Sequence record: MK327931.1
Origin: Escherichia phage vB_EcoM_G17
Strand: one strand, 5' to 3'
Length of the DNA: 64,000 nucleotides
Shown piece by piece: positions 32,235 to 46,913 of this stretch. How positions within the stretch are numbered: position 1 is the first letter of the stretch; every line of letters begins with the position of its first letter. The notes under the pieces are model-generated. The model made no database searches and had not been told where the DNA came from. It was given only the letters and a program-made list of their open reading frames with translations. A program made the translations under genes and the position numbers.

Positions 32235-32891
32235 TCAATCATGTTTATTCAATTTCTTCTGTTCTTTTTTCAAAGCTTTCATATGACGACCAAACTCTCG
32301 AACATGCCATAGATGATCGGTTTCCCATAATTCTTGACGTAACCTACGTTCTTCTAGTAGTTTCGACTTGTCAATGTTATTTTTCTTTTTTTGTACATTA
32401 AAGAAATTATTCATATGTTCTTGGAGAAGATTACGACCTTTAACTTTCTCAAGAAACTCATCAACTGTTTCAGTTTTATTCGAACGTAGTTGATTACATC
32501 TGGAGCACATAGTATTAAAGTTTGACTCTAAATCAGGTCCACCCTTAGATGCCAGATGATTATGGTCAACTGTCATTAAAACTTCATAAAGACCACATAC
32601 AGCATATACATTTAAATGTGGTTTACCATATACTGGATCAGAACATAATGAACGTTCAATGCGTACTTCAGTAGCTTCAATCCCACATGCCACGCATTTT
32701 GGATTCTTAACAAAAGTAAGAACTTTTTGTGGGAAATATCGAAAAGTAATACCATTTAAAGTGTAGCGTTTCATCTTAGTACTTCGTTGATTTAATTCGT
32801 CAAGAAGTGATAATTTTGTCGTATAGTAAACATGATATTTGTTCATTTTATTCCTTGATATTGATTTTAATATCTTTACCTTGTAAATCAC
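32235..32891 (-). CDS. HNH homing endonuclease
   Basis: HNH core VDHNHLASKGGPDLESNFNTMCSRCNQLRSNK. Confidence 0.8.
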   Translation of the reverse strand: MIYKVKILKSISRNKMNKYHVYYTTKLSLLDELNQRSTKMKRYTLNGITFRYFPQKVLTFVKNPKCVACGIEATEVRIERSLCSDPVYGKPHLNVYAVCGLYEVLMTVDHNHLASKGGPDLESNFNTMCSRCNQLRSNKTETVDEFLEKVKGRNLLQEHMNNFFNVQKKKNNIDKSKLLEERRLRQELWETDHLWHVREFGRHMKALKKEQKKLNKHD

Positions 32892-33156
32892 GAATAGTTT
32901 TAATCAATGCGTCGTGTTTTAAAGCACATTCATTGTAGACTGCATCCCAACGAGTAAGTACTTTAAGAATTTCTGCACCATCATAACCTTTAAAACCATT
33001 TTTGTCAATCATAATTTTTTGTGGTAGAGGTGTATCATCATCACATCTTTCTAACAGAATTTCTTGTTTAATTGGTGCGGGGGATTGTAGTTTTACTTGC
33101 TCGGCACACCCACTTATAATTAAAAAAGAAATCATTGGAACTAATAATTTTTTCAT
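32848..33156 (-). CDS. lipoprotein, putative o-spanin (outer membrane spanin)
   Basis: Signal peptide with lipobox IISGC; immediately downstream of TM plus coiled-coil i-spanin-like gene, 4-nt overlap. Confidence 0.5.
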   Translation of the reverse strand: MKKLLVPMISFLIISGCAEQVKLQSPAPIKQEILLERCDDDTPLPQKIMIDKNGFKGYDGAEILKVLTRWDAVYNECALKHDALIKTIRDLQGKDIKINIKE

Positions 33157-33527
33157 TTGAATTTATTCCTCGCTGCTTGAGAATTTTGTTTTAGTTCATT
33201 CAGTACTTTTACACCATCTTCATCTAAACATACATTCTTATAAACTTCACGTTCTACAATAAAAGGAACCTTTGTTTCAATAACTTTAGCATTATCTTCC
33301 ATGATTTTTTTAGTTTCAAGGTAATTTTTTGCATTTTCTTGTTGCATTTTATCCAAGGCGGTATCAACTTTTTTAGCTATTTGTTGCTCTATGCTTTGTT
33401 GATATCCACTGTAATAAGTATTAGCTTCCCAACCAGCATAAGCTGAACCGCCAATTAATAATACAAAAGAAATTGGTTTCCAAAATGGAATAAGAATTTT
33501 TGAAACAATTATTTCTAACATACTCAT
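33153..33527 (-). CDS. putative i-spanin (N-terminal TM helix plus periplasmic coiled coil)
   Basis: TM segment ISFVLLIGGSAYAGW then charged helical region; paired with lipoprotein. Confidence 0.5.
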   Translation of the reverse strand: MSMLEIIVSKILIPFWKPISFVLLIGGSAYAGWEANTYYSGYQQSIEQQIAKKVDTALDKMQQENAKNYLETKKIMEDNAKVIETKVPFIVEREVYKNVCLDEDGVKVLNELKQNSQAARNKFK

Positions 33528-33580: not shown

Positions 33581-34000
33581 TTACAACATTTTTTGAATAT
33601 GTTCTACTAGTTCATACAGCTTCGTTTCATTATTCTCGAACTTTTCATCAACTTCAACATTGAATTTTTCTTCTAGTTCCATGACCATTTCAATCCAATC
33701 AAGCCAATCAAAATTGAATTTTTCTTCGACTTCCAATTTAGTAAGATTGAAGTTCGCTGATACCTCATTCTCTGATGTATCACAGTAACGAGTAGTGATG
33801 AATTTGACAATTTCTTTTTCAACATCGTTTAATTCACGAGTTTGATATTCGGGCTGAAGATACCACCATTCTCCCTTATTAATAGATTCCAATTCTTGTT
33901 TGATTTCATGCATTACTTTATAACGGTCAGTACTTTTATCAATAGAATTTACTTCTTGGTTCAATACATGTAGTGCATTTTTAATACGTTCATTTAACAT
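33581..34000 (-). CDS. hypothetical protein (139 aa)
   Basis: ORF. Confidence 0.5.
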   Translation of the reverse strand: MLNERIKNALHVLNQEVNSIDKSTDRYKVMHEIKQELESINKGEWWYLQPEYQTRELNDVEKEIVKFITTRYCDTSENEVSANFNLTKLEVEEKFNFDWLDWIEMVMELEEKFNVEVDEKFENNETKLYELVEHIQKML

Positions 34001-34011
34001 TTTATCACCTT

Positions 34012-34043
34012 ATAAAAAAAGAGAACTCCATATGAAGTTCTCT
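34012..34043 (-). terminator. rho-independent terminator after large depolymerase-like gene
   Basis: Hairpin AGAGAACT-TCATATGG-AGTTCTCT followed by TTTTTTTAT on minus strand. Confidence 0.6.
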
Positions 34044-34074
34044 GATTATACATAATTACTTTTTCTATGTCAAG

Positions 34075-36864
34075 TTATAAATCACGGAAACGATTTGGTG
34101 TGTTTAAGCGGTACATTGAGTATAATCCCAATCCACGCATAATCTCACCTGCCCAGAAACCAAAAAACATACCATTATCAGTACCTTCTCTAACTGCTGG
34201 ACTCCATGAACCATTCATTGGAGAACCTGGACTTACAATAACATAGTTCTTTTGAAGTTCGAGAACTAAGTTATCAGCGAGTGTTGTTAGACCTTCTATT
34301 TTACATCCAGCCAATCCAGCAGCACAAGCCCCAGCTAACCACAACCCACACATATGACCTGTAAAGTCCCAATCTGGACCTTCAACTGTGCCATCTTTAT
34401 TGAAGATTGTTGGTGAACGACCATCATTATCTTTTTGAAATTGAATTAAAAAGTGAATCCAATTCTCACAAAATTCAACAAGATCTGCTGGTGGTTCAAT
34501 TCCTCTCTCTGCGAGTTCTTGCCATGCTCTGGCAGCCCCAAAGAACGCACGTGGTTCATACCCACTCCATGCTTGATCACCCCAATGTAGCATAGTAAAT
34601 GTATCTGGTTCACCATATTTTAAGTTATCCCAGCGGTTCCAAACATATGCTTGTGCACATGGACCAACAGTACCGAATTGTTGAGTAAACCATGTTTGAG
34701 AATCTTTCATAAAGCTTAACATGTTGCCTAAACGTGTGTTATCAACTGGTTGGTCTTTAAAACAATATATCACAGGATATTGATAACCTGGATACGGTAA
34801 ACCACGCCATCCTGAATACTGGTTCGCATACGGGTCAGTGATGTTAGAAAATGGTATTGTTCCTGGTGTGTAATGCAATGAGTTTAACAAATAATCCTTG
34901 ATTACACAATCCCCTAACTGTGCAGTATATGGTGATTCACCTGCAATTGTTATTGAAAATGTCATAGTATAGTCATCACCGTCAGCATCCGTGTATAATT
35001 CTGGAATGTCATTAATACAATACCAATCAATTATTGCAGCAACACCATCTACTGGGGTTGTATCAGGTAAAATAGTAATATCTTCTAGTTCACTATAAAC
35101 TGGTGCATCTGGTCTTGGGTCAGAACTTGGATGATTTGGCTGATACCCAGATAAACGTAATGTATCGGAACTTAGTGTGATTGTAGTCCATTCCCCGTGT
35201 GTTGCAGGAATCATCCACCACCATCTCCAACCATTATCATCTACAATTCTTATATTGTAATCATCTTCATATGAACGATAGGTAAAAGATTTAACTTCAG
35301 ACTTATTTGTTGCTAATAGCCAAAATCCAATAACAGCACCATCATCTTCACCACAAACTAACTGATTAATGGTATCGCGGCGTGTAACTAATATATCAGT
35401 ACTATATATCATTTCGGACGTAGCTGCACCATAAGGAACAACAATTCTACTATCAGCAATTATATAAGGGGAACCATCTGCTTTCTTTTCTCTAACAAAT
35501 GCACTTAAAGGTGTTAATGAATGTGTGATATTTTGGTCTTTACTTTCCGGTAAGCCACAACGATAACGAACAACATCATGGTCATTTTTTGTTTTTGACA
35601 ATTCCAGTACTGGTTTAAATGATAACGGCTTACCATCATCACATACACCACCATAGTCTACAAGTAATTTAGAATCAGCATTGACCCTGAACCAAATAGC
35701 TTGTTGTTCCATAGTACTTTGTGCACTTTGGTCTTGCCTGATAGTAATATATCCTAGAGAATTTCTACCAAACTTAGCAATAGCATCACTAGGATAAAAA
35801 TATTCATAGGAAATACCATCAGTGAATGGTGTGGTTACAATTGTACTTTGTCTGAAAAATTTATCTCTGGAGTCAATATCACCATAAGCATAACACGTTA
35901 GTAGTGAACATTTCCAACCCAAATAATGTTTTCTTTCTTTTGTTATTTTATATAACAAATAAGAAGCATCACTAAACCATAATTCTGCATCTGATGCGTT
36001 ATCAGCAAATTCCAAATCAATTGGAACATGAAGAGGGCGGTTGTGTTGCATTTCATTTCGTTGAATTATCACACCACCATATTCTACTGGTTGACGATTT
36101 GCAAAATTTAATTTATATACACCATTAATTGTTGTATTCTTTAATTGAACAGTTCCTTTTTCCGATTCGTCAAAACCTTCTGCTAAAATATTACCATCCC
36201 AGTCGATTTTTCTACCCATGAAATCGATAATCCAGTCAACATCATATTGTTCACCTGGTGTATCCCAATCAACACTACCATCTGGTAATAATGCTTTTAC
36301 TGACGCATTTATTTGGTTCCATGCTAAAGCACCTTTGAATGCAAATGTTACTTTATCCAAGAACTGACCATAATAAGGTGCACCATGTGGTATTTTACAT
36401 TGTCCATTTGTAAATGTAAATTCTACACCCTTGAAACCACCATGTGTAGGCCATCCATCATCAGCTAAAGGCCAGTTAGCCAATATAGGTTCTTTGGCAT
36501 TAACTATCCAGTTACATTGTAGTGGTGTAGGTGGATCTGGTAATTCACGTCCAGCATAAAAGTACTGATGATATGCGTCCCAATACCACTTTGCCTTATC
36601 TAAAAACATTGGATCATTTGTTGCCAGATACGCATAAATGTATCCTAAAATTAATAGACTTTGACCTTCTGTTGTCCCGTCACCGTTTGGTTGACCTTCC
36701 ATTGCAGAATAGTTAATAAAATGACGGTTGTTCGCCAAAACACCCTGATTATTCACCACATAATGTTGTACTGTTGGATCTATAGTATCACCAGTATTTC
36801 TTTCAATAAACTTATGATGCCCATAAAGAAGTTGTACTATATTATCAATATTATTGTTTAACAT
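34075..36864 (-). CDS. large Trp/aromatic-rich protein (929 aa), candidate carbohydrate-active tailspike/depolymerase
   Basis: Long ORF; Trp, Tyr, Gly and Pro enriched; composition unlike neighbours; last gene of nucleotidyltransferase operon. Confidence 0.45.
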   Translation of the reverse strand: MLNNNIDNIVQLLYGHHKFIERNTGDTIDPTVQHYVVNNQGVLANNRHFINYSAMEGQPNGDGTTEGQSLLILGYIYAYLATNDPMFLDKAKWYWDAYHQYFYAGRELPDPPTPLQCNWIVNAKEPILANWPLADDGWPTHGGFKGVEFTFTNGQCKIPHGAPYYGQFLDKVTFAFKGALAWNQINASVKALLPDGSVDWDTPGEQYDVDWIIDFMGRKIDWDGNILAEGFDESEKGTVQLKNTTINGVYKLNFANRQPVEYGGVIIQRNEMQHNRPLHVPIDLEFADNASDAELWFSDASYLLYKITKERKHYLGWKCSLLTCYAYGDIDSRDKFFRQSTIVTTPFTDGISYEYFYPSDAIAKFGRNSLGYITIRQDQSAQSTMEQQAIWFRVNADSKLLVDYGGVCDDGKPLSFKPVLELSKTKNDHDVVRYRCGLPESKDQNITHSLTPLSAFVREKKADGSPYIIADSRIVVPYGAATSEMIYSTDILVTRRDTINQLVCGEDDGAVIGFWLLATNKSEVKSFTYRSYEDDYNIRIVDDNGWRWWWMIPATHGEWTTITLSSDTLRLSGYQPNHPSSDPRPDAPVYSELEDITILPDTTPVDGVAAIIDWYCINDIPELYTDADGDDYTMTFSITIAGESPYTAQLGDCVIKDYLLNSLHYTPGTIPFSNITDPYANQYSGWRGLPYPGYQYPVIYCFKDQPVDNTRLGNMLSFMKDSQTWFTQQFGTVGPCAQAYVWNRWDNLKYGEPDTFTMLHWGDQAWSGYEPRAFFGAARAWQELAERGIEPPADLVEFCENWIHFLIQFQKDNDGRSPTIFNKDGTVEGPDWDFTGHMCGLWLAGACAAGLAGCKIEGLTTLADNLVLELQKNYVIVSPGSPMNGSWSPAVREGTDNGMFFGFWAGEIMRGLGLYSMYRLNTPNRFRDL

Positions 36865-36865
36865 G

Positions 36866-37402
36866 TCATACTCCTGCTCTAATCAATGCACCGTACCATG
36901 TAACTCCTTTATCGTATGTTTCTAATGAAATAATATCTTTTTCACCAATTTCATAAGAAAGAACAACTGGTCTATTATATGACCATTTAACATTAGATCC
37001 CCAATTAACGAGGTTAGACCCTGTTTGCTGAGTTAATAGGATAGTAATTGAATAAACTTCAGTAGGAGCAGCACCAATAGCAATAGTGGTATTTCTGTCA
37101 GATAAATTAATATTAAAAACTGTATTACCTGATAGGGGATTAATTAAAATATTATTAGAACTCAATACATTATATAATTTGTTACTAGCACTATCATACA
37201 ATGTTACCCATTCTGTTTCATGATTCTCATTAGTAGCTTTAGCTTTTATTTTTACATTATTTTCGGAAGAAGTCATTCCAGTCCAGCCAGAAATAATAAA
37301 AGAACTGTTTTTATTTGTTCCAAATGATGCAATTACTGAATCACTAAGAGAACTATCTTCACCGTCAATAGATCCGAGTACTGACAATGTTAAAACCATC
37401 AT
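36866..37402 (-). CDS. hypothetical protein (178 aa), possibly the C-terminal part of a frameshift-split gene
   Basis: Overlaps 37365..37565 in another frame across an A5 run. Confidence 0.4.
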   Translation of the reverse strand: MMVLTLSVLGSIDGEDSSLSDSVIASFGTNKNSSFIISGWTGMTSSENNVKIKAKATNENHETEWVTLYDSASNKLYNVLSSNNILINPLSGNTVFNINLSDRNTTIAIGAAPTEVYSITILLTQQTGSNLVNWGSNVKWSYNRPVVLSYEIGEKDIISLETYDKGVTWYGALIRAGV

Positions 37403-37565
37403 TTTTAATGTCTACACCAGTTGCACCTGAAAAATTATTTTGAAATTTAATAACTCCGGTAGTGTGGATATCTGTGAAAATTTGTTGTGCCATACTTAAT
37501 CCTTGCGTTAATTTATATTGAGTATTTATTGAGTATAATGGCATTTTTAGTACCATTATACTCAT
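37365..37565 (-). CDS. hypothetical protein (66 aa), possibly the N-terminal part of a frameshift-split gene
   Basis: Starts just after nucleotidyltransferase stop; ends inside overlap with 36866..37402. Confidence 0.35.
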   Translation of the reverse strand: MSIMVLKMPLYSINTQYKLTQGLSMAQQIFTDIHTTGVIKFQNNFSGATGVDIKNDGFNIVSTRIY

Positions 37566-37570
37566 GTATG

Positions 37571-38803
37571 TTACTTATACCATTGCATTTCTCTGATATC
37601 AATGATAATTTTTGATGCTAATTTAATGTTTGGTTTTTTGGGAAGTACTGATTTCTTATATAGAACATCACGAATGTATTGTACTTTATCATCGAAATAT
37701 TCTAATACTTCTTCATACTTCCACTTACCATTACGAATATCCATCAACATTTGTGCATCAGGTCGTTTAACTTGAATAATTCCACTCTGTAAAGCTTCTT
37801 CTGCACTATTCAAAAGTCTAATTGTGTGCATAGCATGTTTACAATCGTATCCGTGTTGTGATTCTAAAACAGCACGTTTGGCATTACGATTTTCTTTCCA
37901 TTTATGATAACTTTTCCTATTCTCACTATTCTCCTGATATTCTTTTTCGTTAAATTTTACAATTAGTTCTGGTTTGGTTTTCAACTCTTCAGTACTACGT
38001 TCTTTTGAAAAATAACGCAATGAACCATCATGGTTAATAGTGCTTTCATTAGGATTCTTAACAATCGCAAAAATGTTTTCTCCGTAATGAATTAGTTCAT
38101 AACCATTATTAAAATTCAATAAATTGAAATCACGATCAAGAATTTTTTCAGTAGTGTAGTTATGCACTAATCTTACGAAATGATATTGCTTTAATGGATT
38201 TTTCGAAACTAACTGCAATGATGTATCACGCATATATTTTTCAAAATCAATCTTTTTAGCATTAAATGGATGTAAGTTGGATGTATCTAAACGTTCAACA
38301 AGATACTGTGGGAATGAATCATACATCCACGCAAGAACCTCATCGACAGGGTGTTCTTCTAAAATCTCATTTAATCGTTTTTCAGCAATACGCTCTTTAT
38401 CCATCCAACCGTGATGATTTGTCATACGCTTAATCTGATTATATGCATATCCAGTGTATGAAAATGCAATCTTGGAACTAAGAAGTTTTTGGTTAAATGA
38501 ACGAAGATAGTCATAAATTTCAGTACTTTCCACAATGTGTTCAGGTTCAACCCAAAGTGATTCAAGAATATTAGGGTTAGCTTCAGTGTATAATTTTAAA
38601 TACTGATTCAACTCATAGAATTTAGTATCTTCTTCGCTTTTGTCAGCTACCTCTTTGACCTTATAGAAGGGTGTAAGAATAAATTCTTTATTAGCAAGAA
38701 AAATACCACGATAATCAGTATCACTTTCCGGTGTACTGGTTCCGTAGGCTTGTGACCCAGCCAAGTGTTTCACTATTGTTTGTTCAATATATTGGTTATT
38801 CAT
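37571..38803 (-). CDS. Pol-beta-superfamily nucleotidyltransferase (predicted NTase of RNA-repair-associated type)
   Basis: N-terminal hGSxAYGxxxxxSDxDxRGIF signature: LAGSQAYGTSTPESDTDYRGIF. Confidence 0.65.
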   Translation of the reverse strand: MNNQYIEQTIVKHLAGSQAYGTSTPESDTDYRGIFLANKEFILTPFYKVKEVADKSEEDTKFYELNQYLKLYTEANPNILESLWVEPEHIVESTEIYDYLRSFNQKLLSSKIAFSYTGYAYNQIKRMTNHHGWMDKERIAEKRLNEILEEHPVDEVLAWMYDSFPQYLVERLDTSNLHPFNAKKIDFEKYMRDTSLQLVSKNPLKQYHFVRLVHNYTTEKILDRDFNLLNFNNGYELIHYGENIFAIVKNPNESTINHDGSLRYFSKERSTEELKTKPELIVKFNEKEYQENSENRKSYHKWKENRNAKRAVLESQHGYDCKHAMHTIRLLNSAEEALQSGIIQVKRPDAQMLMDIRNGKWKYEEVLEYFDDKVQYIRDVLYKKSVLPKKPNIKLASKIIIDIREMQWYK

Positions 38804-39203: not shown

Positions 39204-39713
39204 TTAACCACCATACTTTGACTTGTATGTTTCAAGTGATAAAGATATACGATTTTGCTTTTTAATTCTTTCATCAATATCCTTTGAATTCTTCACACTT
39301 CGGTATACGTCAGCTAATAAATTATAATCTTCTTTATTTGAGCTATGCTGTGTCCAACCTATGTCTGTTTTAATACGAACATTTGCTTTATTTGACGAGT
39401 AAAAGAAACTGAAACCATTTGACCCATCAAAAATATCAAAAGTATCTACCCAATCACCATAAGGAAAACTCATCGGGACTGACTCGTGGTCGATTGTGAT
39501 ATCCGATAAATTTTTTGAACAGTACTTCGCAAAGTGATAAACAATTGGATCACATTTAGATAATTCATATTTGTATTCAATGATAGTTTTTCTATTAGCA
39601 TCATTGATAGCATATTCTTTCATCAATGGGCTTTTTTTGATGATAAGAGTCCACAGAAACGATTCTAATCCGGTTTCATCAACTTTTTGTTTCTTTTTGA
39701 AAAATGAAATCAT
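39204..39713 (-). CDS. hypothetical protein, tandem paralog 3 of 3
   Basis: Shared motif DANRKTIIEYKYELSK with two upstream genes. Confidence 0.55.
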   Translation of the reverse strand: MISFFKKKQKVDETGLESFLWTLIIKKSPLMKEYAINDANRKTIIEYKYELSKCDPIVYHFAKYCSKNLSDITIDHESVPMSFPYGDWVDTFDIFDGSNGFSFFYSSNKANVRIKTDIGWTQHSSNKEDYNLLADVYRSVKNSKDIDERIKKQNRISLSLETYKSKYGG

Positions 39714-40231
39714 TTATATAAACCCTTAATTTTCTGTCTATTATGTATATCATTTTGCTGGATTTTCAATTTAGTAAGGTTGTTTCTTACACCTTCAACT
39801 CCACGCATTATTTGTAACATAATTAGTGATTCGTCATATGTTAGTACATTGCTATTATTATCGATATATACTTTCACTCCACTTTCAAGATAATCATTTT
39901 CTTTGGAGTTAAAGTTTCTAATAGCAAACTTAACGCCATTTGATGTATCACTGAAAACATATCGTTCCGCACCGTAGAATGTTTTTCCACGAAATAAACC
40001 GCCGTCTTCCCACTTCCAACGACTAGATTCATAATCATTAACGTAATCAATGATTAAAGAAAGTAAAGGGTGTTTGCTCAATTTATATTTTGCATCTAAC
40101 AGGATACGTCTATCATTATCTGTGGTGATAATATCCTTTAGTGAGTAGCTTTTAGATATAATTTTAAAGATAATTTCATGCCAAATTAAAGTACTGTTTT
40201 GTTTTCCAACTGATCCAAAAAACATATCCAT
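39710..40231 (-). CDS. hypothetical protein, tandem paralog 2 of 3
   Basis: Shared motif DNDRRILLDAKYKLSK. Confidence 0.55.
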   Translation of the reverse strand: MDMFFGSVGKQNSTLIWHEIIFKIISKSYSLKDIITTDNDRRILLDAKYKLSKHPLLSLIIDYVNDYESSRWKWEDGGLFRGKTFYGAERYVFSDTSNGVKFAIRNFNSKENDYLESGVKVYIDNNSNVLTYDESLIMLQIMRGVEGVRNNLTKLKIQQNDIHNRQKIKGLYK

Positions 40232-40237
40232 TCCTCA

Positions 40238-40804
40238 TTAGTATAAATCAGTAATGTCTTTGTATGCATTAATCTGTTTTTGTTGTAATGAAAGTTCATT
40301 GAGTTTAGTTACCATTTTATCTACACCAACACGTGTATAGAAAATAATAAATGAATCTAAATTGCCTAGAGTAATTCTTGAACTGAAATTTGAAAGTTTT
40401 CTTGCATAAACATAAATTTCTTCTTCACTTGGTAAACGTTTCTCAATCGGCCAGCTTTCCACACCATTCGGCTCATAATCGATTTCAAATTCAACTCCCA
40501 TCACTGTGTCTTGAATGAGATCCGTATATGAACCACCGTAAAAATACTCTCTTGGTTTGGCTCTCCAACGAGGACTAAATGGGTCAGATGCGTATTCTTT
40601 TACAAATTTGTAAAAGGACATTTTACTGAGCATATACTTCATCTCAATTAGTGCTTTGCGGTCATCATCAGTTTTAAACTCTGCTTTGAGCGATGGACTT
40701 TTACACAGTAACTTAACTAAATTGATGTACATCTTTAATGTACGTTGTTCTTTCATTTCTTTGATTTTGTGACGTTTTGGTGGCGGTAATAAAGATTTGA
40801 CCAT
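40238..40804 (-). CDS. hypothetical protein, tandem paralog 1 of 3
   Basis: Shared motif DDDRKALIEMKYMLSK; AGGAGG RBS. Confidence 0.55.
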   Translation of the reverse strand: MVKSLLPPPKRHKIKEMKEQRTLKMYINLVKLLCKSPSLKAEFKTDDDRKALIEMKYMLSKMSFYKFVKEYASDPFSPRWRAKPREYFYGGSYTDLIQDTVMGVEFEIDYEPNGVESWPIEKRLPSEEEIYVYARKLSNFSSRITLGNLDSFIIFYTRVGVDKMVTKLNELSLQQKQINAYKDITDLY

Positions 40805-40826: not shown

Positions 40827-40855
40827 ATTATACACATAAAAGAAAAGCCCGTCAA
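40827..40855 (-). promoter_or_regulatory. sigma70-type promoter TTGACG-17-TATAAT driving the paralog/NTase/depolymerase operon
   Basis: Minus strand TTGACGGGCTTTTCTTTTATGTGTATAAT, then AGGAGG RBS and ATG at 40804. Confidence 0.5.
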
Positions 40856-40867
40856 TAGACGAGCTTT
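40837..40867 (-). terminator. terminator-like hairpin after tail-fibre-like gene (overlaps -35 of next promoter)
   Basis: GCTCGTCTATTGACGGGC then TTTTCTTTT on minus strand. Confidence 0.45.
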
Positions 40868-40871
40868 AAAT

Positions 40872-43601
40872 TTATTTCCAACGTGTACCTGGACCTGATG
40901 GTACACCAGTACTGGCAGGTATCGCTGAACCACGTTTCGTTGTACTTGGACGATATGTCAAAAAACGAGTTACTTTTTCTGTATCAATTGAAGTTATTCC
41001 TGAAGTTCCAGTAACTATCTTACCAATGTAAGTGCTAGTTAAAGATTCATCAATTGTTTCAGTACTAATAACATATGACGCTTTCTTAGTATTCCTGTTC
41101 ATTTGTATATACAAATAGAACGTAGTATTAGCTGGGTTACTTTTTACAGTACTTAAATCAACACTTTGTATAGGTAGTCTGTCGAAAATTCCACCTAAAA
41201 ACACCGGAACTTCACGTGTAAAGTACACTGAGAATCCTTGTGCAACGTCTTGTGATACTACCACAATCTTTTCTTTAACGCTACCATTTCCACTAATTAA
41301 ACCATCCATTTCAGCAGATGTTGTACCAAAAACGCTGAATACAGATTTGGTTTGATAGTCAGAATCTTGAAAATTGTAATATCCAAAACCAACACCAGGA
41401 ATAACACCATGTTGATATGCTGCACCAAGTTGGATGTAACTAGATGATAAAAAACGATTTGATGTTATGACACCATCTACTGTTTTAGCTATCATCATCT
41501 TAAATTGTGCATTACCTGGTTGTGAAAATTGATGAACAGCATCAACACCAATGTAACCAAATCCTGAATATTTTGCAACTGTTAGACCAGTACAACGTTT
41601 CATATATGCTTCAGTAATAATTCCTGTAACAGAACTAAGTGTCTCATATCTAGTACTTACCAATGTAGCTGAAGTTATGTTAGATCCAGATAATACAACA
41701 TCAACTTCGGCATAGATTGCATAACCTTGGTTATTGTTAAGATTATATGCTGAAACTACTGCAATGGATTTAGAAAAAGTATTATCAGGTACATAATATA
41801 ATACAATTTGTCCAGATAGTGTACCAACAATGCCAGAGTTTCCTAGATTAGCAAAAATATCTTGTTTTAATGATTCTAATACCGTTGGTTCTATTGTATA
41901 TGTTTCATCAAATTCTAAAGTATCTGGGTTTAATAATCCACCACTTGTTTTATATACACCTTCAATGAATGATGTTCCATAACATCTAACACTACCATCG
42001 GTATCAACAAGAGAAATCATAGCAGTGTATGTAAAATCATCACCTATTTGTTTACGATTAGATTGTGGTGCAAAACCATTTAATGTAGTATTATTTTGAA
42101 CTGAGTTATATTGATATGTTGGTTGTGAGCCTATTTCAGAAAAAACAGTATTATTATAATTATATGTTACATCATCATACGTACCAGAACATGCTAATAA
42201 TATTTTTCTATTATCGATGAAACGTACACCTAATAGGTTTGCACCAACAGCACTACCAAAAACTGGTAAAACGTTTGCATTTATAACGTTACTTGCGGAT
42301 CTAGTACTAGCAACCCATGAATCAAACGGTGTACCACTAACCTTATATCGTTGTAGACCATAAAATTCAGTTGAACTCCATCTAAATTTAGATGCAAATA
42401 CTAAACCATCTTTGGTTTGACATAAACCACCTGCGTTTCCTAATACACCAGCAGCAGTTGTCCCAGTAAAGTTGACCATATTGATTTCAAATGGGTTAGA
42501 AACTTGAAATCCATTATCATATGAAACTGTAGCAGGAGCACGAGCAGAACCATCTAGTGACATAGATTTTGAGTTTATATTATAAACAAAACTGATACCA
42601 GTACCATACACTGTTGAAATATATAAAGGTGTAACCATTCTATGGGTTGGGTATAAAGTTACACGTATTTTGGATAAATCAGTACTAACGTTTGCTTGTA
42701 TATTAAAGTCTGTATAATCCGAAAATTCTACACGTGAGACTGGTGATGTAACTTCGAATAATGAATCCGAGCTAGTACCAACACTATATAATCTATCAAA
42801 CACTCTTATGTTATTAGATGCAGAATAACTTGTATTTCGAACAGTTTGCCCTGATAATCCAGTAACTTTTGTTAATGATGCCATTGAGCTTGCTTTCACA
42901 TCACTTAGCTCTACTGTATAAATTGAAAGTGCTAATCCTAAATTAGAAACACTTTTATCTTTACACCAAATATATACTTTTGTTCCAACAATATGAGTAT
43001 ATATAGGCATATCATTACCAAAAGAAGTACTTGGTACTTTAGCATGAATATGTGATACTTCGTTGAATGTACCATTAGTTATAGTAAAAATATAATTATC
43101 TTCTGTACTTAAACATCCAAGCATTTCATAACCATTAGAGCCAATAAAATACTTAATATTCTCTGTACTACTCATAATTGAAGGTTTATACATTGAATTG
43201 GTTGAAATAACACTTTCTTGTGAAATCATGGTTATATTTCTGATTTCTCGTATAAATGAATAATAAAAACCTTTAGTACTACCATTGGTTCCGCTACGCA
43301 GAACAACGGCGGTTCCATCATCTTCAATAATTGTTGGCTGAACTACTTGGTCACTTGACATAGGTGTAGCACCTTCATACGACCCACTTACGTTTAATGG
43401 CAAGTAATCCATTTCTCCTACACGTGATATAGGCAACATATCTAAAATACTTTGAACTTCTGAACGCTTATATATTGGATATTGAACAATTCCAGTATTG
43501 GCATTCGGTGAGGTTCCATTAAAAGTACGCATAGCGTACCTTTGTCCAATTGCCAAGTTCCCAAGGATCTCGGCACTTCCTATAATTCGTTTTGATGACA
43601 T
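40872..43601 (-). CDS. large tail-fibre-like structural protein (about 909 aa from ATG at 43601), paralog of 44217..46913
   Basis: S/T/N/G-rich; N-terminal and C-terminal regions paralogous to 898-aa gene; start chosen by paralog alignment (ORF extends to 43691). Confidence 0.55.
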   Translation of the reverse strand: MSSKRIIGSAEILGNLAIGQRYAMRTFNGTSPNANTGIVQYPIYKRSEVQSILDMLPISRVGEMDYLPLNVSGSYEGATPMSSDQVVQPTIIEDDGTAVVLRSGTNGSTKGFYYSFIREIRNITMISQESVISTNSMYKPSIMSSTENIKYFIGSNGYEMLGCLSTEDNYIFTITNGTFNEVSHIHAKVPSTSFGNDMPIYTHIVGTKVYIWCKDKSVSNLGLALSIYTVELSDVKASSMASLTKVTGLSGQTVRNTSYSASNNIRVFDRLYSVGTSSDSLFEVTSPVSRVEFSDYTDFNIQANVSTDLSKIRVTLYPTHRMVTPLYISTVYGTGISFVYNINSKSMSLDGSARAPATVSYDNGFQVSNPFEINMVNFTGTTAAGVLGNAGGLCQTKDGLVFASKFRWSSTEFYGLQRYKVSGTPFDSWVASTRSASNVINANVLPVFGSAVGANLLGVRFIDNRKILLACSGTYDDVTYNYNNTVFSEIGSQPTYQYNSVQNNTTLNGFAPQSNRKQIGDDFTYTAMISLVDTDGSVRCYGTSFIEGVYKTSGGLLNPDTLEFDETYTIEPTVLESLKQDIFANLGNSGIVGTLSGQIVLYYVPDNTFSKSIAVVSAYNLNNNQGYAIYAEVDVVLSGSNITSATLVSTRYETLSSVTGIITEAYMKRCTGLTVAKYSGFGYIGVDAVHQFSQPGNAQFKMMIAKTVDGVITSNRFLSSSYIQLGAAYQHGVIPGVGFGYYNFQDSDYQTKSVFSVFGTTSAEMDGLISGNGSVKEKIVVVSQDVAQGFSVYFTREVPVFLGGIFDRLPIQSVDLSTVKSNPANTTFYLYIQMNRNTKKASYVISTETIDESLTSTYIGKIVTGTSGITSIDTEKVTRFLTYRPSTTKRGSAIPASTGVPSGPGTRWK

Positions 43602-43617
43602 CTTTCTTTTCCTTAAT

Positions 43618-44205
43618 TTACCAACCAATTGTACCAGTTTCTGATGGTTTTCCAGTACTGACTGGGAATGAAGAACCTTTTTGTGTAACACTAGGTCTAT
43701 ATGTACTAAATCTGGATACTTTATTAATGTTTATATTTGTAATACCACTTGTACCAACGGTCAGTGTTCCAATAAACATTATAATTTCAGATTCTTGTAT
43801 TTGTGTTGGTGATATTTTATAAATTGGTTCACCGAGAACTAACGTTGCATATACATATTGTGTTTGTGTTCCAGATGAAACAGTTGAAGCAAAAATAGAA
43901 ACTGCTGGAAATTTATAAAGATAACCACCAATAAATGATGGTATCTGTCTATTAAATGTAAGACTATAGCCTGATGAAGTAATATTTAGACTAGCGTCAT
44001 CATACAATTCTCCGTATTGTGTAAGTGGTAATCCATTGACAATAAAGTTAACTTCATCTTTGGTAATAGAGGGGAATGTACATTCCCCATTTGAATTTGT
44101 TGGGTAATAAGTCATATTATTACCTAATACACCAAGTCCAGTACTTTTACCCTGTACTGTAACTTGTTGCATTGCCTTAAGGTCTGCTCTTATTTTAAAT
44201 GCCAT
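43618..44205 (-). CDS. small structural protein carrying the shared C-terminal module alone (195 aa)
   Basis: C-terminus TVGTSGITNININKVSRFSTYRPSVTQKGSSFPVSTGKPSETGTIGW matches C-termini of both flanking large proteins. Confidence 0.55.
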   Translation of the reverse strand: MAFKIRADLKAMQQVTVQGKSTGLGVLGNNMTYYPTNSNGECTFPSITKDEVNFIVNGLPLTQYGELYDDASLNITSSGYSLTFNRQIPSFIGGYLYKFPAVSIFASTVSSGTQTQYVYATLVLGEPIYKISPTQIQESEIIMFIGTLTVGTSGITNININKVSRFSTYRPSVTQKGSSFPVSTGKPSETGTIGW

Positions 44206-44216
44206 TATGTAATCCT

Positions 44217-46913
44217 TTACCAGTTTATGGTTCCTGTTTGTGATGGTAGACCGTAGCTAACTGGGAACGATGAACCTGCTGATTCAAGTGAAGCACCAAA
44301 TATATCTAAACGTGAACGTTTTTGTATATTAATAGTTTCGATTTGAATTGCGTTAGTTTGAATAGTACCTATCCAAAAAATATTATATGCAGTTGTTCCT
44401 GTTTCGGAAATAACATCAGTAGTTATGTAGTAGTTTGCCAACCCTTGTTCTAATTTAACATATACATAAAATGTTGTATTTGCTGGATTAGATTTTATAG
44501 TTCTCAAATCAATATTTGAAACTGGTAGTGTAAAAGACTTACCTGATAGTATAACTGGTGTTTCCTCTGTAAAATAAACAATAAACCCTTGAGCAACGTC
44601 TTGTGATACTACGTTAATTGGGCTACCTTGTGGAGTCCAGTTATTATAGTCGGCTATCGTTGTTCCATATTTTTGAAATGACATTTTATTTGTATAATCC
44701 AGTGGATCAAAAATACCAAATCCAATACCAGGCAACGCAGTGGGTTGTCTTCCTTGTTCATAACTGGCATGAGAACCAGTAATAACAAAACTTGTAAATT
44801 GTGCAGTTGATTTAGTTACATATGCTCTAAATTGATGAGTTGCTGTATTTCCTATTGTTGGATGTGTTAATGGGTCAGAACCACCAATGAAGTAGAATGA
44901 ACCACCATCATAAATTGTTAACCCAACAGAAGAAGATGCAATCGAACCATTACCATTAGGTGTAAAGTTTTCACCATATGTATTTTCTAGTACTAAACGC
45001 TTAAAGGTAATAGATGTTATATTTCCAACTCTAGTATTAACGTTAACTTCAGCAATTCTAATATAGTTTTTATAGTCATTTGTTATAGTACTCAACATAA
45101 CAAAAGCCGGAATGTCAGTTTGTTGTGGAACAAATAATGTCATATCACGATAAGCTTGTGAAGATAAGTTCCAGTCACTTAGAACTTTAGCATATTCTGT
45201 ATTTCTAAAGTTATCTAGAACTGATTGTGTAACACTAATAACACCAGTACCATTTAAGTTTTTATCATATGAAAATGATTGTGAATAACGTTGACCAACC
45301 ATAAAAATACCGCCATTAGTTGTTACAGTTGAACCTGAAATACTACTAATGAAAATTCTATTATTGGCATTATCATCTACATAACCACGTTCAGTTGTAG
45401 GTTCATAACCTTGTATGGTTCCTAAAGATAATGATTTAAATGTAAAATTAGGAGTACTTTTATGAACTGCATATGATGGTCTAAACCCACCACTACCAGA
45501 CGCACGTGAATATTGTTTAGTACTATTATCTGGTAACAACTCCACACCATTAATAAATGAACCAACTGCTGAACCAAAGGATGGTCTAACAACTCCACCT
45601 TTAAAATCAGTTGATTGTACTGCACGAACGTTAATCATACTATAAACAATTTGTATAGGAAACTTTGCTTTTTGCATAAGTAATGGTTCTGCTAAGTTTG
45701 GACACACAGTACAAAAAGCTTCACCTGAACTTAAGTAAAAATAAGAACTATAAATGTTTCTTGCATTAGCATGATTATATAATGGATCATTATTTAAAAC
45801 GTTACCTGTAGGCACTAATGCAGAACCAGTATTGGTTATAACCAATGGTGCTTGATATGAACCTATGTCATTCCCAGCGTCTAGGGTGCATTGTTTAGTA
45901 CTCATATTAAATGCAAAGCTGTAGCTATGTTGTGGTCGGGCATTATATGTCGCCATTGTAAACCATGCATCACCATTCATTCTAAAACGAAAGTTCTGTG
46001 TTCCTGGTTGCTGTGCAACATACAAATCAATGGATGTCATATAAATCCCAATACCACGTAGGTTTTGTGGTACATACACATAAGGCTTATCTGCTATATT
46101 AGTTGAAGTTACTTGATTAGTAATAACCATGTTATTCTGTGCAGAATAAGTTGTATTATAGAATGTTTTTGTAGTCCATCCTGTAATACGAGTTGCCGTA
46201 TATGTTCCATTGCTAATATTATATACAACTCGGACAACAACTAACTGTAGTTGGTTATTTTCATTAAGAACACTAAAGACATAGATTGAACCATCTTCAG
46301 CCATCATTGCAAATTCTATACCACCTTCAGGGCAAATATCTGCTTGATTTACAAAAAAACCAGTATGTAATTTATCATCTAATGTACCATTAGTAATAGA
46401 AATAAACAATCCATTAGTACTGTTAGAAGTGTCTACATATCTACCGAGTAAAATATTTGGATCAGTATTGTATAAGCCAATTGCGACGCGATTTGAACCG
46501 AAAAAACCAGGCTTGTATTGACGACTGGTGTTAATTGTACGGCTCATGTCATCAACTGATAATGCGTTAGCCAAATATGAATAATATAATCCCTCAACAC
46601 TACCGTTTGTACCACTACGTAATAATACGAGTGTACCATCGTTTTCTAATAAAATTTTATTTCTACGTTGGGACTGGTTTTCAGATGCACCATTGAAATC
46701 ACCAGATACACCAGCAGGAAGATAGTTTTGTGACCCATAATGGGAAATTGGCATCATACTGACGATATCTAGTACTTCATCTCTTGAATAAGTATCTAGC
46801 TCCATATTGCCATTAGCATCAAATACTTGATCATTGATACCTTGTATTGTTCTTTTACCATTAACTGTCACATTATGTGTGACATCCAAGCCACCATATA
46901 TTTTCTTTGACAT
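44217..46913 (-). CDS. large tail-fibre-like structural protein (898 aa), paralog of 40872..43601
   Basis: Shared segments VVSQDVAQGF, TIKSNPANTTFY, PISHYG..YLP; TATAAATA motif upstream. Confidence 0.55.
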   Translation of the reverse strand: MSKKIYGGLDVTHNVTVNGKRTIQGINDQVFDANGNMELDTYSRDEVLDIVSMMPISHYGSQNYLPAGVSGDFNGASENQSQRRNKILLENDGTLVLLRSGTNGSVEGLYYSYLANALSVDDMSRTINTSRQYKPGFFGSNRVAIGLYNTDPNILLGRYVDTSNSTNGLFISITNGTLDDKLHTGFFVNQADICPEGGIEFAMMAEDGSIYVFSVLNENNQLQLVVVRVVYNISNGTYTATRITGWTTKTFYNTTYSAQNNMVITNQVTSTNIADKPYVYVPQNLRGIGIYMTSIDLYVAQQPGTQNFRFRMNGDAWFTMATYNARPQHSYSFAFNMSTKQCTLDAGNDIGSYQAPLVITNTGSALVPTGNVLNNDPLYNHANARNIYSSYFYLSSGEAFCTVCPNLAEPLLMQKAKFPIQIVYSMINVRAVQSTDFKGGVVRPSFGSAVGSFINGVELLPDNSTKQYSRASGSGGFRPSYAVHKSTPNFTFKSLSLGTIQGYEPTTERGYVDDNANNRIFISSISGSTVTTNGGIFMVGQRYSQSFSYDKNLNGTGVISVTQSVLDNFRNTEYAKVLSDWNLSSQAYRDMTLFVPQQTDIPAFVMLSTITNDYKNYIRIAEVNVNTRVGNITSITFKRLVLENTYGENFTPNGNGSIASSSVGLTIYDGGSFYFIGGSDPLTHPTIGNTATHQFRAYVTKSTAQFTSFVITGSHASYEQGRQPTALPGIGFGIFDPLDYTNKMSFQKYGTTIADYNNWTPQGSPINVVSQDVAQGFIVYFTEETPVILSGKSFTLPVSNIDLRTIKSNPANTTFYVYVKLEQGLANYYITTDVISETGTTAYNIFWIGTIQTNAIQIETINIQKRSRLDIFGASLESAGSSFPVSYGLPSQTGTINW

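Follow-up and report, generated by a model that had tools for sequence, protein, structure and literature searches.

The gene considered here is open reading frame (ORF) 34075..36864 on the minus strand of an Asteriusvirus jumbo coliphage, Escherichia phage vB_EcoM_G17 (sequence record MK327931.1; the window below is the whole 64,000-nucleotide stretch analyzed). We favor the possibility, at a probability of roughly 0.6, that its 929-aa product is a tail appendage of the phi92 gp141 family which is mounted on the particle through a small adaptor and which binds, and most likely cleaves, a polysaccharide of the bacterial surface or matrix. In our working model the protein would be made together with a small protein encoded directly upstream, whose conserved C-terminal domain of about 90 residues would dock it and whose lineage-specific N-terminus would plug into the tail. 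Its predicted core is a six-hairpin (α/α)6 glycosidase-type barrel built from three sequence segments and interrupted by two β-rich insertions, the larger of which resembles a carbohydrate-binding module (CBM). Cleavage would be carried out by an acid/base centre around E66, D292 and E294 and would help the phage to reach the outer membrane. The gene itself is not a discovery: it is already in GenBank as an ordinary annotated gene and belongs to a recognized 'tail protein' family. The position and the length of 929 aa that a preliminary description of the window gave for the ORF were confirmed; it is on the minus strand and runs from ATG to TAA.

Family, predicted fold and candidate catalytic residues

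An identical protein (100%) is encoded by phage Sharanji, and the counterparts of the 929-aa protein in 121Q (gp509, 'tail protein'; 99.8%), PBECO4 and 15 other records share 99.7-99.9% identity with it; these 18 Asteriusvirus-type records carry E. coli and Salmonella host labels, and the local gene order of the window is that of 121Q gp496-gp537. phi92 gp141 is 57% identical over 99% of the length, PHROG 2871 ('tail protein') was matched at E = 0 over residues 2-926, and a tblastn search retrieved 530 phage records with a homolog, which is near full length in 519. Homologs are present in phAPEC8-like, PVP-SE1-like, Seoulvirus jumbo, Rosemountvirus, Loughboroughvirus and Kolesnikvirus phages and in podoviruses of the Autographiviridae (for example Yersinia phage ISAO8, 46%); those of the rV5-like phages (31%) and of Vibrio phages (33%) are more distant. 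Two 'Campylobacter phage' records, MG065639 (A150) and MG065672 (A141), hold homologs that match the query as closely as those of phi92-like (56.7%) and rV5-like (31%) coliphages do, and their genomes are of a size usual in these groups; the host labels of these records may be unreliable. When 1.84 billion representative proteins were searched exhaustively with a profile, 386 relatives were returned at E <= 1e-3, 181 of them at E <= 1e-30; clustered at 50% identity the family amounts to a few hundred clusters. Pfam and NCBIfam models and PDB sequences gave no direct match to the 929-aa protein (Pfam none at E <= 1), and clear homology to a non-enzymatic, non-structural family, the outcome that the preliminary description had named as contrary to its proposal, was not found.

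Virion evidence comes from phage S144, where ORF17 (111 kDa), a phi92 gp141 homolog according to GenBank, was found in virions by electrospray ionization tandem mass spectrometry (25 peptides, 33% coverage) along with the 21-kDa ORF16. HHpred hinted at hydrolase activity for ORF17, and the authors saw likeness to neither spike nor fibre. In a 2017 review, which cites Schwarzer 2012, phi92 gp141 is one of five tail spike and fibre proteins listed and bears the label 'glycosidase'. The BASEL paper states that the lateral fibres of these phages cannot be clearly assigned to individual genes, and in a 2026 cryo-electron microscopy (cryo-EM) study of phi92 no protein is assigned to fiber II or to the fiber I arm. 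The Sharanji and BASEL-2025 papers contain nothing on the 929-aa gene, virion data for Asteriusvirus particles were looked for in the literature and not found, and no solved structure of a family member was found among PDB sequences or in the searched literature. The papers on phages ES17 and φ80-18 were set aside, as they concern unrelated β-helix or fibre proteins.

The AlphaFold2 (AF2) model of the 929-aa protein, built on 63 homologs, has a predicted local distance difference test score (pLDDT) of 90.1 and a predicted template modelling score (pTM) of 0.84. It contains 11-12 long helices in three groups (residues 2-102, 291-328 and 709-920) that make up an (α/α)6 toroid, and between these groups lie β-rich insertions (residues ~113-283 and 336-690), the second of which has the β-jelly-roll fold of CBMs. 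In a structure comparison > 50 further six-hairpin enzymes followed the leading matches. When a barrel-only profile was compared with PDB sequences, α-mannanases of glycoside hydrolase family 76 (GH76) ranked best (E 9.3e-5), followed by cellobiose 2-epimerases (E 6e-3). Since the GH76 match spans ~95 columns of a generic hairpin motif at 8-13% identity, we make no family-level assignment to GH76, GH105/GH88 or AGE-type epimerases. Going by the model, we file the 929-aa protein as a distinct family in the six-hairpin glycosidase superfamily, predicted to be structurally nearest to GH8. Its domain map and the two motifs of interest are as follows.

36529..36864, minus strand: barrel segment 1, residues 1-112, with N-terminal helix 2-22 and helix hairpin 65-102 (AF2 secondary structure)
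nt 36661-36675, minus strand: putative catalytic-acid motif T64-T-E66-G-Q68, aligning with TSE55GQS of BcsZ
36016..36528, minus strand: β-rich insertion 1, residues 113-283, with β strands 120-274 in the model
35860..36015, minus strand: barrel segment 2, residues 284-335, with helix hairpin 291-328
nt 35983-35997, minus strand: A290-S-D292-A-E294 at the start of hairpin 291-328, resembling the GH8 signature ASDGD of BcsZ
34795..35859, minus strand: β-rich insertion 2, residues 336-690, CBM-like β-jelly-roll domains, holding GWRWWWMIPATHGEW
34078..34794, minus strand: barrel segment 3, residues 691-929, with six helices (709-920) completing the (α/α)6 toroid

Our hypothesis, drawn from sequence conservation, is that E66, D292 and E294 are the candidate acid/base centre. 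Three observations are relevant here: (i) across 14 diverse members, with identity as low as 33%, E66, Q68, D292 and E294 do not vary; (ii) E66, D292 and E294 sit at helix N-termini in the AF2 model and (iii) the nearly invariant motifs TTE66GQS and ASD292AE294 are colinear with TSE55GQS and ASD116GD118 of BcsZ (translated from E. coli MG1655), in an alignment that is non-significant as a whole. We take E55 of BcsZ to be its catalytic acid. D542 and W548 in insertion 2 are invariant as well, and barrel segment 3 has conserved W742-N-R744-W-D746 and E907. Membership of GH8 was considered and set aside, as this colinear alignment with BcsZ is non-significant. Pfam PF01270 gave no match, and the barrel-only profile retrieved no GH8 entry from the PDB sequences. 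An hhalign comparison at full length with the BcsZ alignment paired only the TTEGQS motif; with the β insertions removed the alignment was colinear (E 0.034, probability 1.5%).

The adaptor gene and proposed attachment to the tail

The gene directly upstream of the 929-aa ORF, and a short ORF that overlaps its start, are the following.

36866..37402, minus strand: partner gene, small 'tail fiber' adaptor of 178 aa (121Q gp508; phi92 gp140 homolog; PHROG 32568, E 1e-118)
37365..37493, minus strand: 42-aa ORF homologous to the N-terminus of phage A4's intact adaptor, MAQQIFTDIHTTGVIKF…RIY*

The TGA stop of the adaptor ORF lies 1 nt from the ATG of the 929-aa ORF, with AGGAG upstream, and the two genes are probably translationally coupled. 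The window adaptor is 36% identical to phi92 gp140, with the ~90-aa C-terminal domain conserved. A small gene stands directly upstream of the large one in 121Q, phi92, ISAO8, yarpen, Erwinia Kolesnikvirus, rV5, Vibrio D528 and Seoulvirus, and alignment of the small proteins shows that their N-termini differ while the C-terminal domain of ~90 residues is common to them. A hidden Markov model of this domain was scanned over 80 IMG/VR loci encoding relatives of the 929-aa protein, 74 of which had enough upstream sequence. At 65 of the 74 an abutting or overlapping upstream ORF ends in the adaptor C-domain (E 1e-19 to 1e-43). The other nine encode a 1097-aa form in which an N-terminal Tail_P2_I (P2 gpI baseplate) domain is fused to the large protein (E 7e-52), and the two arrangements are mutually exclusive among these loci.

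The N-termini of the adaptors are recognizable, lineage-specific anchors: podovirus ISAO8 has a T7 tail-fibre N-domain, a 148-kb myovirus has Tail_spike_N and a sipho-type prophage, in which the cassette lies between head genes and the tail tube/tape-measure genes, has a major-tail-protein-like (tail-tube-like) domain. In a P2-like prophage the fused form takes the gpI slot between J and H, and in more distant relatives the fusion partner is a Prophage_tail/Gp58, Tail Collar, Phage-tail_3 or NCTSP domain. A Pfam scan found no anchor domain in the 929-aa protein itself; anchors are on the separate adaptor or, in relatives, present as fusions. This arrangement indicates that the 929-aa protein is probably a peripheral tail appendage, and we infer that it is physically docked by the conserved domain of the adaptor. 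We also considered the possibility that the adaptor is a detached gpI and rejected it, as the Tail_P2_I-fused relative showed no similarity to the small ORF of the window. One distant metagenomic relative, P0283 (1349 aa), carries a gp141-type module together with a separate canonical Glyco_hydro_8 domain (residues 1033-1344, E 7e-44), that is, two six-hairpin barrels in one tail protein.

In the Asteriusvirus phage A4 the adaptor is a single ORF of 209 aa, whereas the window has the 42-aa and 178-aa ORFs, one frame apart, with the latter (37402..36866) continuing in the +1 frame relative to the former. The adaptor is divided in the same way in phage JNE01, where ORF1 is intact, as long as in the window and likewise ends at TGA. 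The split could stem from programmed +1 frameshifting, from a gene that is genuinely in two parts or from the loss of an N-terminal anchor.

Alternative explanations for the 929-aa protein

A number of observations weigh against an adaptor-mounted glycanase. The adaptor gene of the window is apparently split by a frame change. An hhalign comparison of the family with a GH8 (BcsZ) profile gave probabilities of 0.7-4.3% (E 0.01-0.08), and the Pfam and NCBIfam searches yielded no significant sequence match to a CAZy family. For the catalytic base we found no convincing counterpart of BcsZ Asp243; position 770, which aligns weakly with it, is E in the 929-aa protein and Q in the family consensus and in most members. 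(α/α)6 barrels are also found in lyases, epimerases and non-enzymes. The searched literature reports no measured enzymatic activity for any gp141-family member, and the 2026 phi92 cryo-EM paper neither mentions gp141 nor places it in the particle. Finally, depolymerases are not usually so strongly conserved across hosts, and such conservation would suit a structural role just as well.

The last point leads to the first alternative, which we consider unlikely but well worth weighing: the 929-aa protein may be a non-catalytic structural or receptor-binding tail protein in which the barrel and β domains act as a scaffold for other fibres or as a lectin for a conserved surface glycan. Structural parts typically show identity of this order, 45-57%, between very different phages and hosts, some relatives carry a fusion to baseplate gpI, and the lack of a sequence-level CAZy assignment and of an identified catalytic base points the same way, as does the opinion of the S144 authors cited above. 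Set against this are the acidic triad, which stays invariant within its GH8-like motifs even in members at 33% identity, the fact that CBM-like modules are normally appended to enzymes and the pairing, in P0283, of the module with a second, canonical GH8 domain.

The same conservation bears on a further scenario, namely that the 929-aa protein is a recently acquired, host-specific tailspike depolymerase that acts on capsule or O-antigen, sets host range and gives rise to plaque halos. We regard this as improbable. A tail-associated protein with a glycosidase fold would suit such a role, the cassette occurs in unrelated phage lineages and in ISAO8 it takes the sole tail-fibre position. However, identity of 45-57% among phages with very different hosts runs directly counter to the pattern of a fast-evolving, host-specific depolymerase, the family varies little compared with true depolymerases and the 18 Asteriusvirus-type records, from E. 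coli and Salmonella hosts, are nearly identical in this protein. The AF2 model, moreover, shows neither a right-handed parallel β-helix nor a trimeric spike architecture. The preliminary description had proposed a candidate depolymerase/tailspike; the depolymerase half of this is supported by fold, conserved residues, domain content and association with the tail, but a classical tailspike is not supported, as the protein has no β-helix and no N-terminal particle-binding domain. Judged by the model, it is a tail-borne candidate glycanase and not a classical tailspike.

Nor does composition speak for recent acquisition. We compared the 929-aa ORF with the 75 other non-overlapping window ORFs of at least 100 aa (76 ORFs in all). 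Its combined content of Trp, Tyr, Gly and Pro is the highest of the set (22.8% vs a mean of 14.8%; z 2.7) and its Lys, Asn and Ile content is low (rank 68/76). The enrichment described earlier was confirmed for Trp (3.3% vs a mean of 1.0%; z 2.6, rank 3/76), Gly (8.2%, rank 8/76) and Pro (5.7%, rank 6/76) but not for Tyr, which is average (5.6% vs 5.3%, rank 34/76). The Trp-rich motif GWRWWWMIPATHGEW corresponds to residues 545-559 (nt 35188-35232). The 'noticeably more GC' attributed to the gene proved overstated: there is a modest rise (0.370 vs a mean of 0.337; z 0.94, rank 13/76) that is confined to codon position 2 (0.41 vs 0.32), while GC at codon position 3 (GC3) is 0.217, slightly under the window mean of 0.234. 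Synonymous codon choice is typical (likelihood test: z +1.2, rank 61/75 for atypicality), so that the codon-usage comparison suggested in the preliminary description places the gene among the most typical in the window. Given that the GC excess is restricted to codon position 2 and codon choice is typical, the odd composition belongs to the protein and is not a mark of foreign DNA. In GC3 and codon choice the gene matches the resident genome, its composition gives no indication of recent transfer and the earlier suggestion of horizontal acquisition on compositional grounds was not upheld.

A role as a core baseplate wedge protein of the P2 gpI ('tail formation protein I') type is suggested by GenBank labels ('tail protein I' or 'tail formation protein GpI' in A4, JNE01 and SD-1_S14) and by the 1097-aa relatives that start with Tail_P2_I. 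We consider it highly improbable: the window protein has no match to Tail_P2_I (PF09684), which elsewhere is an N-terminal addition, the gp141-type module also occurs in podoviruses and in sipho-type prophages without such baseplates and the phi92 wedge is built from gp145 and gp146 according to the 2026 cryo-EM work.

Neighbouring genes and comparison with known systems

The 929-aa gene is the last of a tightly packed same-strand run that includes a nucleotidyltransferase gene. Its description as the distal gene of a nucleotidyltransferase operon is plausible from strand and spacing only, the immediate partner being the small ORF 36866..37402, while the claim that it has a terminator of its own was substantiated in the form of a terminator-like hairpin that starts 31 nt past the stop. 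The signals and nearby genes are listed below.

37571..38803, minus strand: RlaP-type nucleotidyltransferase
34045..34073, minus strand: perfect sigma-70 consensus TTGACA-17-TATAAT, 12/12 matches, between the 929-aa ORF stop and the hairpin
34020..34043, minus strand: terminator-like hairpin followed by a U-run (10-bp stem + U7, -13.8 kcal/mol, z -4.15 vs shuffles)
33581..34000, minus strand: acyl-carrier-protein-like gene (PHROG 5934 and 4154 'acyl carrier protein', E 1e-7 and 3e-6)
33153..33527, minus strand: Rz-like spanin, ~0.6 kb downstream of the 929-aa gene
32848..33156, minus strand: lipoprotein-like ORF with N-terminus MKKLLVPMISFLIISGC
32235..32891, minus strand: HNH endonuclease, next after the lipoprotein-like ORF

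The promoter probably serves the next gene downstream. It directly abuts the hairpin and its predicted start site falls inside it, which means that read-through transcripts would terminate and new transcripts would not. A second composite element of this kind, in which a hairpin overlaps a perfect or near-perfect sigma-70 promoter, is located at 40827..40867 (minus strand), upstream of the nucleotidyltransferase gene run. The acyl-carrier-protein-like gene is the first beyond the terminator, and its Pfam PP-binding_2 match is under the cut-off of that model. The lipoprotein-like ORF is probably the outer-membrane spanin. The proximity of the spanin genes, together with the glycosidase fold, could suggest a lysis or peptidoglycan-degrading enzyme, but we rejected this most improbable reading on genomic context and virion evidence, in that a terminator and a new promoter intervene, the homologs occur as virion proteins with a fused or coupled tail anchor and the 929-aa protein has no signal peptide or lysin domain.

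On the other side of the locus, three tandem paralogous genes (169-188 aa; PHROGs 18641 and 7868, function unannotated) followed by a 133-aa gene occupy 39204..40804 (minus strand), just upstream of the RlaP-type nucleotidyltransferase gene. Farther along are two large paralogous ORFs, 40872..43691 (939 aa) and 44217..46913 (898 aa), both on the minus strand, which belong to PHROG 3573 (function unannotated; 121Q gp501 and gp499), have a high content of Ser, Thr and Gly and may encode further virion or fibre proteins.

The gp141 family is widespread, being present in 530 phage genomes, including those of therapeutic candidates (phi92-, rV5-, PVP-SE1- and S144-like). What is added here is a domain map of a split six-hairpin barrel with β-rich insertions, the larger CBM-like, a catalytic hypothesis centred on E66, D292 and E294 and a modular attachment rule in which the large protein goes with either an adaptor C-domain or a fused gpI domain. 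A broader scenario, which we put forward only tentatively, is that the family is an unrecognized glycoside-hydrolase (or lyase) family carried as a two-gene 'plug-in' cassette of adaptor and enzyme across all three tail morphotypes and directed at a widely shared envelope or biofilm glycan; the phi92 pair might then be the fiber II density or the fiber I arm, and the Asteriusvirus adaptor might be completed by +1 frameshifting. High conservation of the family would imply a widely shared glycan target and not a strain-specific capsule, possibilities being a cellulose-type β-glucan, the core region of lipopolysaccharide or common antigen. If the target is indeed broadly conserved, this may help to explain broad host ranges and could point to a general antibiofilm enzyme.

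With regard to known systems, the closest is the phi92 gp141 family itself (121Q gp509, PVP-SE1 gp050, S144 ORF17; PHROG 2871), with which the 929-aa protein shares full-length homology and a gp140-like upstream partner. The settings differ in that the gp141 gene of phi92 lies inside the baseplate and fibre module, whereas in the jumbo phage the pair is away from other baseplate genes and is flanked by nucleotidyltransferase and by acyl-carrier-protein-like, spanin and HNH genes; the adaptor gene is also apparently split in the jumbo phage. Compared with GH8 enzymes (C. perfringens CPF_2247 / 3ren; E. coli BcsZ), the barrel of the 929-aa protein is broken by β insertions of ~170 aa and ~355 aa. 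There is precedent for adaptor-mediated attachment in fibres with the T7 gp17 N-domain, in Tail_spike_N branching of CBA120 and G7C and in the K1E/K1-5 adaptor, where a small anchor protein carries an enzymatic distal protein, as would be the case here, and the anchors of known adaptor systems, PF03906 and PF18668, are present on adaptors of the gp141-type cassette. The cargo is different, being an (α/α)6 barrel in place of the trimeric β-helix of known adaptor-mounted tailspikes. So is the docking element, a distinct conserved C-terminal domain of ~90 aa unlike those of the known adaptor systems, and the gp141-type cassette is used with myo-, podo- and sipho-type tails or else gives way to a direct gpI fusion.

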